Positions 19,063 through 27,235 of a DNA stretch of 64,000 bases are shown piece after piece; position 1 is the stretch's first letter; the number at the start of each line of letters is the position of its first letter. The position numbers and the translations under genes were made by a program. The notes under the pieces are model-generated. The model saw only the letters and a list, made by a program, of their open reading frames with translations, searched no databases and was not told where the DNA came from. This DNA is from Escherichia coli (GTDB taxonomy: Bacteria; Pseudomonadota; Gammaproteobacteria; Enterobacterales; Enterobacteriaceae): assembly GCF_024700885.2 (NCBI RefSeq), contig NZ_CP117016.1. The stretch is one strand, 5' to 3'.

Positions 19063-20415
<1,353 letters not shown>

Positions 20416-20456: not shown

Positions 20457-20534
20457 TCAAATTAAACCACACCTATGGTGTATGCATTTATTTGCATACA
20501 TTCAATCAATTGTTATCTAAGGAAATACTTACAT

Positions 20535-20813
20535 ATGCAACTTACAAGTACTCGCAAGAAAGCGAATGCAATTACAAGCAACATCCTGAATCGAATTGCT
20601 GTACGTGGTCAGCGAAAGGTTGCCGACGCGTTAGGGGTTAATGAATCGCAAATTTCGCGATGGAAAGACAGCTTCATCCCCAAAATGGGAATGCTTCTGG
20701 CTGTTCTTGAATGGGGTGTTGAAGACGAGGAGTTGGCGGAACTGGCTAAGAAAGTAGCCAGAATGCTGACAAAAGAAAAAGCCCCGAAGAACGGCGAATT
20801 CTTCGAGGCCTAA
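20535..20813 (+). CDS. cII: cII-like transcriptional activator
   Basis: Internal start MQLTSTRKKANAITSNILNRIAVRGQRKVADALGVNESQISRWKDSFIPKMGMLLAVLEWGV, similar to lambda CII (SQISRWK...LLAVLEWGV). Confidence 0.8.
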   Translation: MQLTSTRKKANAITSNILNRIAVRGQRKVADALGVNESQISRWKDSFIPKMGMLLAVLEWGVEDEELAELAKKVARMLTKEKAPKNGEFFEA

Positions 20814-20847
20814 TGTAGAAAGACTGGATCAATCCACGGGAGTAATT

Positions 20848-21009
20848 ATGACAAAACGTCGTAAGAAATACCAGGAAAAAGAAGAGATTCGACACCCTGA
20901 TTCACCTGAGGGATTAGTGGTAGCCGCAGCAAATAACAGGGCGTTCGCAGAGCGCCTTGTTGGTGTTTACAGACTAGCCAAAGCAGGAGTGAAACATGGG
21001 CGTCGTTAA
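20848..21009 (+). CDS. Small basic hypothetical protein (53 aa), not in ORF track
   Basis: ATG at 20848 preceded by GGGAG; MTKRRKKYQEKEEIRHPDSPEGLVVAAANNRAFAERLVGVYRLAKAGVKHGRR; overlaps start of the O-like gene. Confidence 0.3.
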   Translation: MTKRRKKYQEKEEIRHPDSPEGLVVAAANNRAFAERLVGVYRLAKAGVKHGRR

Positions 21010-21886
21010 GTTAGCTGATTACAGGCATAACCCTGTACAACATCAGGAGGCATCCAGTATGGGGTATGTCTCTATACACCGCCAGTTTATGGACAGCAGG
21101 CTCTATAAGGACTCTCAGGCAGTACATCTTTGGCTTCACTTAATCCTCAAGGCTAATCACGAATCTACTGTCGTCAATACGGTTATCGGGCCGATAACTG
21201 TTGATCGCGGTCAGATGATAACTGGACGCCCGTCGCTGGTCAGAGAAACATTCATCCCCGACAACAAAGTTAGGAGCTTATTGCGGACTTTTGAGTCGAA
21301 AGGGATGCTTAATATTTGCTCGATGGGGAAGAAATTTAGCCTGTTTACAATCGTTAAATATGACGATTTTCAGGCAAAAAATTGTCCAACGGTTGTCCAA
21401 CGGTTGTCCAACGCAAACACCAGTAATGGCGCGGCTCTCAGCGGAGATTGTCCAACGGTTGTCCAACGGTTGTCCATAAACAATAATATAAATAATATCT
21501 CTAATACTGACGTATTAGAGAGTACCGCAGCAGACAAAAAGTCTGACAAGAAAAAACCTTCCGTCAGCTGTCAGGATGTTGTCGATGCTTACCACGAAAT
21601 CCTTCCTGAAGCGCCAAGAATCCGCGCACTGAATGACAAGCGTAAAAACCAGATCCGAACGTTCTGGCGCAAAGCCGGAGTGATAACCCGACAGCTTGAC
21701 GGGCATGGGTTCACGATGCAGGACTGGAGAAATTATTTGAGCTACGTAGGCGAAAATTGCCGATGGATGTTCGAAGAACGCCCAAACCATCAACGCGGAA
21801 CCGTCTGGCACAAAAAGGGATTTGATTTCCTGCTTAACGACAATACCTACCTGAAAGTTCGTGAGGGTGAACATGATGACCGATAA
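20996..21886 (+). CDS. Replication initiator (lambda O-like) with internal origin
   Basis: 296-aa ORF preceding the DnaB-like helicase; contains iteron array and AT-rich tract within the coding sequence, as for ori-lambda in O. Start codon uncertain. Confidence 0.65.
   Translation: MGVVKLADYRHNPVQHQEASSMGYVSIHRQFMDSRLYKDSQAVHLWLHLILKANHESTVVNTVIGPITVDRGQMITGRPSLVRETFIPDNKVRSLLRTFESKGMLNICSMGKKFSLFTIVKYDDFQAKNCPTVVQRLSNANTSNGAALSGDCPTVVQRLSINNNINNISNTDVLESTAADKKSDKKKPSVSCQDVVDAYHEILPEAPRIRALNDKRKNQIRTFWRKAGVITRQLDGHGFTMQDWRNYLSYVGENCRWMFEERPNHQRGTVWHKKGFDFLLNDNTYLKVREGEHDDR
21382..21479. repeat. ori: Origin iterons: six direct repeats of TTGTCCAACGG in two triplets, followed by AT-rich tract
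   Basis: Repeats at 21382, 21393, 21404 and 21448, 21459, 21470; AT-rich segment 21477..21520. Confidence 0.8.
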
Positions 21887-23312
21887 TTTTTATGCGCCGC
21901 CCCATAGCATCGAGGCAGAGCAGGCGGTGATTGGTGGATTGCTTCTGGATGATGACAGCAGTGAGCGCGTCCAGAAAGTTCTGGCGATGCTGAAGCCCGA
22001 TTCATTTTACAGCCGACCACACAAAATCCTTTTCGAAGAAATAACCAGAATGCACCGGGAGCAAAAGCCAGTAGATGGCCTGACGCTTTTCGATGAACTG
22101 GAGCGTAAATCGTTAACGGTGTCTGTTGGCGGTTTTGCTTATATCGCTGAGATCGCAAAGAACACGCCAAGCGCAGCAAACATCGTTGCCTATGCAATGC
22201 AGGTTCGTGAAACCGCAATGGAACGCTACGCCATCAACCGCATGACTGAAGCGACGGAATTGCTCTATTCCCGCAACGGAATGACTGCAACGCAGAAGTA
22301 CGAAGCTATTCAGGCGATTTTCACGCAACTGACAGACCATGCAAAAACCGGATCGCGTCGCGGCCTTCGCTCATTTGGTGAGGTCATGGAAGACTGGGTT
22401 AGCGACCTTGAGAAGCGATCTGACCCGTCAGGCGAACAACGAGGAATGAGCACAGGGATCCCATCTCTGGACAGGATGCTGTCACCGAAAGGTCTGGTGA
22501 AAGGCTCTCTGTTCGTCATTGGCGCTCGCCCTAAGATGGGGAAAACGACGCTATACAGCCAGATGGCAATCAACTGCGCAGTGCATGAGAAAAAGCCAGC
22601 TCTGATGTTCAGCCTTGAAATGCCAGGTGACCAGATACTGGAAAAACTGGTAGGGCAGAAGTCTGGTGTTAACCCGAATATTTTTTACCTTCCGGCGACA
22701 AATGACGCTGATGACGGCTATCAGGGTGATTACGATGGTGACTTCAACAGGGCGATCGAAACAGCAAATCGCTTGAGTGAAATCGACCTGCTTTACATCG
22801 ACGACACGCCGGGATTATCTCTGGCTCAAATCGTCAGCGAAAGCCGTCGAATCAAGCGAGAAAAAGGATGTGTTGGCATGATTCTGGTCGATTACCTGAC
22901 ACTAATGACCGCTGAAAAGGCCGATCGCAACGACCTTGCTTACGGCATGATCACCAAAGGACTGAAGAACCTTGCCAAAGAGCTTGATTGCGTTGTTGTG
23001 CTTCTGACACAGCTTAACCGCGCACTGGAAAGCCGAACCAATAAACGCCCATTACCAAGTGACTCACGAGATACAGGGCAGATTGAACAGGATTGCGATT
23101 ATTGGGTGGGGATCCATCGTGAAGGTGCTTTTGATGACAGCGTTCCTCCTGGTGAAACCGAACTAATCCTTCGTCTCAATCGTCATGGCAATACCGGCAC
23201 GGTGTATTGCATTCAGGTAAATGGCGCTATTTATGACACAGACCAACAGTCTGCTGAAATGCGCCGACGTGAACGCGAGGAACCGCAGTCCAAGAAGAAA
23301 GGAGGATTCTGA
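21873..23312 (+). CDS. DnaB-like replicative helicase (P22 gene 12-like)
   Basis: N-terminal DnaB domain (SIEAEQAVIGGLLLD) and Walker A GARPKMGKT; start taken at ATG 21873. Confidence 0.85.
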   Translation: MMTDNFYAPPHSIEAEQAVIGGLLLDDDSSERVQKVLAMLKPDSFYSRPHKILFEEITRMHREQKPVDGLTLFDELERKSLTVSVGGFAYIAEIAKNTPSAANIVAYAMQVRETAMERYAINRMTEATELLYSRNGMTATQKYEAIQAIFTQLTDHAKTGSRRGLRSFGEVMEDWVSDLEKRSDPSGEQRGMSTGIPSLDRMLSPKGLVKGSLFVIGARPKMGKTTLYSQMAINCAVHEKKPALMFSLEMPGDQILEKLVGQKSGVNPNIFYLPATNDADDGYQGDYDGDFNRAIETANRLSEIDLLYIDDTPGLSLAQIVSESRRIKREKGCVGMILVDYLTLMTAEKADRNDLAYGMITKGLKNLAKELDCVVVLLTQLNRALESRTNKRPLPSDSRDTGQIEQDCDYWVGIHREGAFDDSVPPGETELILRLNRHGNTGTVYCIQVNGAIYDTDQQSAEMRRREREEPQSKKKGGF

Positions 23313-27079: not shown

Positions 27080-27154
27080 GGGTCAGTCGTATAAAGGTCA
27101 TTACGGAAGGCTGTTAACCTTCTTATCGTGGTTCGAGTCCACGCTGTCCCGCCA
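27080..27154 (+). tRNA. tRNA-like gene, anticodon GTT (Asn-like)
   Basis: Hand-folded cloverleaf: acceptor GGGTCAG/CTGTCCC (one mismatch), anticodon stem GAAGG/CCTTC with loop CTGTTAA, T-arm CGTGG-TTCGAGT-CCACG, discriminator G and CCA. Confidence 0.5.
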
Positions 27155-27159
27155 AATAT

Positions 27160-27235
27160 GCTGGTTTAGCTCCAATGGTAGAGCAGTCGCCTTGTAAACG
27201 AATGGGTAGCGGTTCAAGTCCGTTAACCAGCACCA
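27160..27235 (+). tRNA. tRNA-like gene, anticodon TGT (Thr-like)
   Basis: Acceptor GCTGGTT/AACCAGC, canonical D-arm GCTC-CAATGGTA-GAGC, T-arm AGCGG-TTCAAGT-CCGTT, CCA end; anticodon stem has two mismatches. Confidence 0.5.

Follow-up and report, generated by a model that had tools for sequence, protein, structure and literature searches.

We consider it likely that the open reading frame (ORF) at positions 20848 to 21009 of the window, by which we mean the whole 64,000-nucleotide stretch of Escherichia coli DNA that was analyzed (contig NZ_CP117016.1 of assembly GCF_024700885.2), is a genuine and already catalogued small protein gene, the first cistron of the replication module in many lambdoid phages, and that the replication initiator following it starts at 20996. 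By analogy with lambda, the small ORF would be transcribed rightward from pR after cII, and it would be translated from the Shine-Dalgarno (SD) sequence and ATG that in lambda start the O gene. On the opposite strand, its first ~30 nt would hold the -10 region of the promoter for an antisense RNA resembling oop, which would end inside the 3' end of cII. Because the ORF ends 14 nt into the initiator gene and contains the SD sequence of the initiator, the anatomy suggests that ribosomes finishing the small ORF could be handed to the initiator start. The initiator itself would begin at 20996 with an N-terminal degron motif like that of lambda O, and a shorter isoform from 21059 is possible.

A catalogued but uncharacterized gene between cII and the initiator

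The region is a lambdoid early right operon, comprising a cI-like repressor, cro, a cII gene resembling P22 c1, the small ORF, the gene of an O-like initiator that contains iterons, and that of a DnaB-like helicase. Listed below are the small ORF and the features that frame it.

20535 to 20813, plus strand: cII-like (P22 c1-type) activator gene, the upstream neighbor, matching Pfam Phage_CII over its full length (E 1.9e-42) and Sf6 gene 41
20838 to 20842, plus strand: GGGAG, the SD sequence of the small ORF, with a 5-nt spacer to its ATG, kept as (A/G)GGAG in most relatives
20848 to 21009, plus strand: small ORF, 53 amino acids, with ATG at 20848 to 20850 and TAA at 21007 to 21009, belonging to the HK97 gp53/Sf6 gene 42/ES18 gp58 family (PHROG 1331)
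20996 to 21886, plus strand: O-like replication initiator of the Sf6 gene 43 type, 296 amino acids, matching phrog_345 ("replication initiation O-like") from residue 1 (E 4e-84), with the same start in the Sf6 and PGAP annotations
21381 to 21479, no strand assigned: origin iterons found by repeat search, the 11-bp repeat TTGTCCAACGG in two groups of three with an AT-rich stretch after them, corresponding to the Sf6 rep_origin
21876 to 23312, plus strand: DnaB-like replicative helicase gene of the Sf6 gene 44 type, with Pfam DnaB and DnaB_C domains and matching Sf6 and PGAP annotations

The 53 codons of the small ORF specify MTKRRKKYQEKEEIRHPDSPEGLVVAAANNRAFAERLVGVYRLAKAGVKHGRR, a protein with 6 lysines and 8 arginines (14 of 53 residues) and a computed pI of 10.7 and mass of 6.1 kDa. 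A preliminary description of this DNA had noted a 53-amino-acid Lys/Arg-rich ORF with a ribosome binding site that overlaps the initiator start, and the coordinates, the GGGAG, the 14 basic residues, and the 14-nt overlap between the stop of the ORF and the initiator gene that begins at ATG 20996 all agree with it. Its statement that lambda has no gene between cII and O likewise holds: in lambda, only 32 nt separate the end of cII (38653) from the start of O (38686), and Hayes et al. 2012 (PMC3349717) concur, describing the lambdoid layout as "cII-oop-orf-O-P" with orf missing from lambda.

The PHROG 1331 profile ("unknown function") matches the small ORF over its full length (1-53/53, E 1.4e-37). 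The protein is 100% identical to HK97 gp53 and Sf6 gp42 and 94 to 98% identical to ES18 gp58 and epsilon34 gp49; Sf6 gene 42 is annotated as "Phage HK97 53 protein homolog," and PGAP labels the window copy a hypothetical protein, WP_000166961.1. At the DNA level, positions 20475 to 21900 are 98.9 to 99.2% identical to phages Sf6 and Huey by megablast. HK97 gp53, Sf6 gene 42, ES18 gp58, and epsilon34 gp49 all follow cII and share the same 14-nt overlap with an O-like gene, and no difference sets the window copy apart from this family, of which it is a member. The layout of a cII-like gene, the small ORF, and an O-like initiator overlapped by the stop of the ORF recurs in Sf6, HK633, HK97, ES18, Erwinia phage 49, Stx2 phage 1717, epsilon34, and metagenomic loci. 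Every locus examined, the most distant members included, keeps both the slot and the overlap; the overlap is conserved at 14 nt, with lengths of 4, 8, or 26 nt among distant members and analogous loci. Given these existing annotations and the description by Hayes et al., the small ORF belongs to an already annotated, uncharacterized gene family and not to a new one, which the preliminary description had not recognized.

The gene is common in its host and narrow in its range. Its DNA was found in 581 of 5,426 complete E. coli genomes (~11%), Stx-converting phages being among the carriers, and the exact protein occurs on at least 1,000 contigs. A profile search of 1.84 billion representatives recovered 28 clusters at 50% identity, whose matches are nearly all short proteins, the informative ones under 60 amino acids and enterobacterial, and the same search gave no informative fusions. 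The family is thus small and taxonomically narrow. Its most distant members occupy the same slot, overlap the start of an initiator, and are followed by a DnaB-like helicase.

As a discovery the gene carries little weight, since its annotation goes back to the genomes of HK97 (2000) and Sf6 (2004) and the literature knows it as the "orf" that lambda lacks. It is among the most widespread uncharacterized early genes of lambdoid prophages. Its overlaps tie it both to the initiator gene and to the putative antisense promoter of oop, and its role could explain how replication starts, or how initiator levels are controlled, in lambdoid modules without P. The comparative backing for the 20996 start and the degron motif is useful for annotating or expressing such initiators.

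Selection acts on the amino acids of the small ORF

The length of the ORF by itself is not beyond chance, since six-frame translation of the window yields 309 ORFs of at least 53 amino acids and 178 of 45 to 65 amino acids. It rises above chance because of its conservation and a codon-level signal of selection. Diverged copies with 62 to 80% protein identity came from phages of Cronobacter, Erwinia, and Enterobacter as well as from contigs of genomes and metagenomes, and selection was tested on the 51 codon columns outside the initiator overlap. In the frame of the small ORF the mean pS was 0.69 and the mean pN 0.18, while the other two frames of the same DNA gave pS/pN values of 0.21/0.32 and 0.18/0.35, so that pN exceeded pS in both. 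Nearly every copy has stops in both other frames, one copy lacking a stop in one of them. Pairwise omega for diverged pairs, where computable, ranged from 0.04 to 0.21, and variable columns at codon positions 1, 2, and 3 numbered 26, 20, and 45 of 51.

Length differences among the copies are all whole codons, in homolog sets drawn partly from gene calls and protein similarity searches and so biased toward intact ORFs; a few singletons (P0058, P0064, and P0084) are frameshifted. The SD sequence and start codon are kept even in relatives where the ATG has shifted by one codon. Residues E12, E13, P20, G22, L23, V24, A27, N30, F33, A34, E35, R36, G39, R42, and A44 are invariant or nearly so. Judged from these alignments, the pattern is that of a translated protein under purifying selection rather than of a spacer or a chance frame, and the small ORF is very probably a real protein-coding gene. 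The preliminary description had offered a real small regulator as one of two readings, and it is the real small product of this branch that the selection on amino acids, the in-phase indels, and the conserved SD and start sustain.

Other small ORFs occupy the same slot

In P22, the position between the oop/cII end and the initiator is taken by orf48, a member of DUF2740 (PF10872). It is of similar size (48 amino acids), has the same start region (ATCAATCCACAGGAGTAATTATG) and a stop that overlaps the initiator start, and likewise accompanies helicase-encoding modules. The likeness in slot and start region is seen in the layouts of ST160 and Midgardsormr38 and in the alignment, and Hayes et al. 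2012 (PMC3349717) treat the gp53 type and P22 orf48 alike as the "orf" of cII-oop-orf-O-P. Homology between the two proteins was considered and rejected, as hhalign between alignments of both families gave a probability of 0.5% and the window ORF has no Pfam match. DUF2740 and the small ORF are alike only in their first ~10 codons, including ACCAGGA at +23 to +29, and this likeness probably stems from the boundary and pO region being shared as DNA: two unrelated families of small ORF would have similar first codons because these overlap the antisense promoter.

That two unrelated families sit in one slot with the same start region suggests that the slot itself matters, and together with the conserved stop/start overlap and the initiator SD inside the ORF it gives some credit to a leader ORF that is translated with its product being irrelevant. 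Such a leader would keep the mRNA translated, hand ribosomes to the initiator, and provide spacer DNA for the oop promoter. The protein of a pure spacer would drift, however, and here strong conservation of the amino acids goes with synonymous sites close to saturation and omega values far below 1. Throughout the family there is an invariant motif, and replacements are conservative; DUF2740 too has a conserved protein pattern. We regard a leader function alone as unlikely. Strong purifying selection indicates that the small protein is probably more than a translated spacer.

Other helicase-encoding modules carry other ORFs in the slot, one of 81 amino acids in Pmp11 and one of 77 amino acids in Stx2_EH2246, the latter again with a 14-nt overlap. 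Neither a gp53-type nor a DUF2740 ORF was present at any of 80 loci with lambda P, and all 104 loci with a small ORF were without P and encoded their own helicase where the sequence reaches far enough, in samples whose members are not phylogenetically independent. A DnaB-like helicase is seen at 92 of the 104, the rest being loci with the ES18-type primase-helicase or incomplete loci. In six divergent phages with P-type loaders, no small ORF is annotated in the slot. The association between small ORFs and helicase modules is suggestive. One speculative and rather improbable extension is that the small protein and DUF2740 are accessories of lambdoid modules that have their own replicative helicase in place of a lambda P-type loader. 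Such an accessory might supply a P-like step, recruiting or remodeling a constant host factor or helping to load the helicase, or might tune turnover of the initiator by ClpXP.

The initiator probably starts inside the small ORF

Three features bear on where the initiator begins.

20985 to 20989, plus strand: AGGAG, the SD sequence of the initiator, which lies in the small ORF with a 6-nt spacer to ATG 20996; AGGAG or AGGGG in relatives
20996 to 21025, plus strand: codons for MGVVKLADYR, the conserved initiator N terminus and a probable degron resembling ClpX N-motif-1
21045 to 21061, plus strand: internal AGGAGG-N8-ATG (Met-22, the start of MGYVSIHRQF), with AGGAGG at 21045 to 21050 and ATG at 21059; a possible secondary start

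The decapeptide MGVVKLADYR heads at least three unrelated initiator cores: the Sf6 type, several Phage_rep_O types (HK97, ES18, and Erwinia), and a "GHFALFRS" type. In the Sf6 type, the core that follows the decapeptide includes …MGYVSIHRQFMDS…. Variants of the decapeptide include MAVVKLADYR, MGVVRLADYR, MGVVKISDYR, and MNVAKLSDYR, and its codons differ synonymously between copies (AAG/AAA, GCT/GCA, GAT/GAC, and AGG/CGG). A similar motif, MSNVRKISDYRPP, heads the Phage_rep_O initiator of Midgardsormr38, where the preceding gene is an unrelated DUF2740 ORF; because it also follows an ORF of this kind, the motif belongs to the initiator and not to the small ORF.

When Phage_rep_O N termini are aligned with MAFFT, GVVKLADYR stands in register with lambda O residues 2 to 12, TNTAKILNFGR, the tag that serves as a model ClpX N-motif-1 degron (PMC12723719). 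The two share the N-terminal position and the register phi-K-phi-x-D/N-Y/F-R ahead of the VAD..DG core of Phage_rep_O relatives. The likeness to lambda O is only at the level of the motif, and by Pfam the downstream core of the window initiator is not a Phage_rep_O domain. We consider MGVVKLADYR a probable lambda O-like ClpX degron of the initiator.

The other branch of the preliminary description placed the initiator start further downstream, at MGYVSIHRQF, so that the initiator would be made only from Met-22 (21059) and positions 20996 to 21058 would be untranslated or part of something else. The AGGAGG-N8-ATG at 21045 to 21061 is strong and invariant in all three Sf6-type initiators compared, and the conserved DNA-binding core begins right after the Met at 21059. 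Against this, the decapeptide with its synonymous changes precedes unrelated cores in which the corresponding position is not Met, and it sits in the register of the lambda O degron, while the PHROG 345 profile matches from residue 1. The linker from the decapeptide to 21059 varies among Sf6-type initiators by an in-frame indel of two codons, and P22-type gp18 reads Lys-Gly-Phe (AAG GGG TTT) where the window initiator has Met-Gly-Tyr. A sole start at 21059 is therefore quite improbable, the conservation of the decapeptide, the lambda O register, the indel, and the gp18 lysine leaving it without support.

The 20996 start is well supported because the decapeptide is conserved before unrelated cores, lies in the lambda O register, and is followed by a linker with an indel, and because gp18 lacks the internal Met; reading across these comparisons, we think that the initiator is very probably made from 20996. 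The comparison with related O-like genes that the preliminary description had proposed thus backs 20996, and the Met at 21059 is absent from P22-type initiators, although its SD and ATG are kept within its own subtype. Because AGGAGG-N8-ATG is invariant within that subtype, an additional, shorter isoform from 21059 without the degron is conceivable, and we would put it as a minority possibility. The preliminary description had framed a real small gene and a downstream initiator start as alternatives; this framing is mistaken, because the small gene and the initiator at 20996 both appear real and overlap.

Whether the overlap has a consequence for expression is more evenly balanced. Translational coupling contributes to initiator expression with about an even chance; the strong SD of the initiator itself weighs against it.

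Structure and possible partners of the small protein

An AlphaFold2 (AF2) model of the small protein has a basic, disordered N-terminal segment of 19 residues followed by helices at residues 20 to 29 and 31 to 46. Core pLDDT values were 78 to 87 in the monomer, whose mean pLDDT of 68 indicates moderate confidence, and 89 to 92 in a fusion run described below. A conserved (H/Y)PDSP(D/E)GLV motif runs into the two predicted helices. The protein has no Pfam match at E ≤ 1, no NCBIfam family, and no PADLOC family, and neither a profile search of the PDB nor a Foldseek search of the PDB with the AF2 model gave a match at E ≤ 10. Two kinds of known small regulator were considered, the FtsH inhibitor CIII of lambda and the RNA-binding helical hairpin Rop/Rom, and neither matches in sequence or fold. 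Literature on HK97 gp53, orf48, DUF2740, and WP_000166961 yielded descriptive mentions and no functional study or phenotype. As no domain, fold, or literature assigns the small ORF a function, the label "regulator" given to it in the preliminary description does not carry over.

Covariation of the small protein with the type of initiator or helicase was looked for and rejected, as identical copies flank different ones. Identical small proteins precede different initiator families (locus L092 versus L093, and L094 versus L095), and identical copies are found upstream of helicases with just 31% identity (phage 2851) or of the T7 gp4 type (ES18). Because the same small protein adjoins helicases so diverged or of another family, a specific helicase contact is argued against. 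It is unlikely that the small protein specifically contacts the variable regions of either initiator or helicase, and a constant partner is therefore likelier, such as a host factor, nucleic acid, or the N-terminal motif of the initiator. The partner of the small protein, if any, is most likely something constant, for example a host factor or nucleic acid.

The third of these candidates would have the small protein bind the initiator decapeptide, for instance shielding it from ClpXP, with coupling supplying the two proteins in 1:1 amounts. Overlapping, coupled genes often encode partners, within the core family the small ORF stays with the decapeptide when the remainder of the initiator is exchanged, and the decapeptide sits where lambda O has its ClpX tag. 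This co-inheritance needs no function, however, because the two are adjacent and overlapping. In Midgardsormr38 the motif comes after the unrelated DUF2740 ORF, and a distant member of the small ORF family (L101) precedes an HTH_36-type initiator without the motif. In an AF2 fusion of the small protein, a linker, and initiator residues 1 to 16, which is a crude test, the peptide stayed at a pLDDT of ~44 to 50. A dedicated partnership with the initiator seems improbable next to a genuine small protein gene whose partner, if it has one, is a constant host factor or nucleic acid.

A putative antisense promoter and a hairpin overlap the coding sequence

The beginning of the small ORF lies within a region shared with lambda, and four nucleotide-level features accompany it.

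20823 to 20855, no strand assigned: mosaic boundary sequence, Sf6 "bsq5," homologous to the translation start region of lambda O and holding the SD and ATG of the small ORF; aligns with lambda ACTGGATCTATCAACAGGAGTCATTATGACAAAT
20845 to 20853, minus strand: putative extended -10 of the oop promoter (pO), TGTCATAAT, assigned by homology to lambda, in which CAT is the complement of the ATG of the small ORF
20768 to 20837, minus strand: predicted oop-like antisense RNA, whose 5' end is assigned from homology with lambda oop, with an intrinsic terminator found by terminator scan inside the 3' end of cII (stem at 20811 to 20779 and a U run)
20934 to 20962, plus strand: 13-bp hairpin in the MFE fold, inside the small ORF at the codons for NNRAFAERLVG

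Many megablast matches, those of HK106, mEp234, HK75, and HK629 among them, start at query position 349, which is window position 20823. The window segment ACTGGATCAATCCACGGGAGTAATTATGACAAA is homologous to lambda ACTGGATCTATCAACAGGAGTCATTATGACAAA, the SD and start of lambda O itself. In both, SD-ATG-ACA-AA is the homologous stretch, its minus strand giving the pO -10 (CATAAT) and the 5' end of oop, with the terminator in the 3' end of cII. In lambda, this start opens O directly, whereas here the same start opens the 53-codon ORF and the initiator comes next with its own SD. According to Hayes et al. 2012 (PMC3349717), the -10 of lambda pO reads ATTATG on the plus strand, and Sf6 belongs to the phages in which pO and the 5' end of oop are conserved; relatives in which the ATG has shifted by one codon keep ATTTTA or ATTATA at the place of the pO -10. 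The -35 region of lambda pO differs from that of the window, and a consensus sigma-70 promoter for the oop-like RNA was rejected: a simple sigma-70 scan found none, there is no consensus -35, and only an extended -10 is assigned, by homology. The first codons of the small ORF may thus double as a putative antisense promoter.

The predicted 70-nt oop-like RNA folds at -27.1 kcal/mol (z -4.6), and 0 of 200 shuffles folded as well. No Rfam family reaches threshold on the region, which gives only sub-threshold chance matches. From its likeness to lambda oop, we infer that the RNA is expressed.

The hairpin at 20934 to 20962 is modestly conserved: 72.8% of cells are paired, compared with 30 to 48% in slid controls, and 7 pairs show double changes, and it is absent from the most distant family members. 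A conserved mRNA hairpin sequestering the initiator SD was considered and rejected, as the MFE fold gives weak local pairing there and the strong hairpin lies upstream at 20934 to 20962. Nucleotide-level elements, namely, pO, this hairpin, and the SD and N-terminal codons of the initiator, could account for part of the conservation of the ORF. It is very improbable that they account for all of it, in which case the ORF would be no gene but a frame open by chance, the region being kept for its pO/oop promoter, for a hairpin in RNA or DNA, and for the signals that start translation of the initiator. ORFs of this size are indeed common by chance in the window, the 5' end overlaps a pO-like -10, the hairpin inside is partly conserved, and Pfam, NCBIfam, PDB, and fold searches give no match, but substitutions concentrate at third codon positions in the frame of the small ORF only, the other frames have stops and pN greater than pS, indels are in phase, and the SD and start persist even where the ATG has moved.

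Small ORFs and helicase type

Among the loci sampled, lambda-P-type helicase loaders and a small ORF of either family were together in no locus (80 lambda-P loci, L107-L186, and six divergent P-loader phages, L187-L192, compared with the small-ORF loci L001-L105), and in L001-L105 small ORFs of both the gp53-type and DUF2740 families always stood alongside modules encoding their own helicase. Different small ORFs fill the same slot in other helicase-encoding modules, and the slot ORF of Stx2_EH2246 (L195:145-378), which differs from both families, likewise overlaps its initiator by 14 nt. Frameshifted versions of the small ORF were rare in public data. Each of the three found (P0058, P0064, and P0084) was a single-member cluster, and they are therefore either decaying prophages or sequencing errors.

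Nucleic acid elements at the small ORF

Three features lie at or within the small ORF:
20768-20853, minus strand, putative oop-like antisense RNA unit
20869-20882 and, in the ST160 locus, L003:1104-1112, (T/G)ACCAGGA(A/C)AAA string present in both small-ORF families
20934-20962, plus strand, 13-bp hairpin inside the small ORF, spanning codons for the best-conserved residues of the ORF

The string occurs at +22 to +33 from the ATG, an equal distance in two unrelated families, and its synonymous sites are almost invariant within the gp53 family; this shared spacing and near invariance suggest an element acting at the DNA level. It is possibly the -35 or upstream region of the putative antisense promoter. 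The putative extended -10 of the oop-like unit, TGTCATAAT (minus strand), overlaps the small ORF's start codon, and homology to lambda oop would place the RNA 5' end near 20837. The 3' end of cII contains a strong intrinsic terminator with its stem at 20811-20779 and a U run, the predicted RNA fold is -27.1 kcal/mol (z, -4.6), and no Rfam family covers the unit.

The hairpin is conserved in part among relatives, with 72.8% of cells paired versus 30-48% in slid controls and both sides changed in seven pairs. The most distant family members lack it, and it could simply be a side effect of the codons.

Elements within the initiator gene

Two features fall inside the O-like initiator gene:
21045-21061, plus strand, internal AGGAGG-N8-ATG at initiator codon 22
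21381-21479, origin-like iterons, 11-bp TTGTCCAACGG repeats

Across three diverged Sf6-type initiators AGGAGG-N8-ATG does not change, whereas the preceding linker does; this makes a shorter isoform starting at codon 22, without the N-terminal degron-like motif, a possibility. The iterons fall into two clusters, 66 bp apart and each with three repeats, and agree with the Sf6 rep_origin annotation; an AT-rich stretch reaching ~21510 comes after them.

Neighboring features

19066-19467, minus strand, 134-aa ORF with a hydrophobic, signal-like N terminus
27080-27235, plus strand, adjacent tRNA-Asn(GTT) and tRNA-Thr(TGT) genes

The 134-aa ORF, for which Pfam gave no significant match, has a moron-like position and is probably coexpressed with the repressor in lysogens, since its ATG overlaps the TGA stop of the repressor gene (ATGA). 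The tRNA pair follows the replication and nin region a few kilobases downstream.
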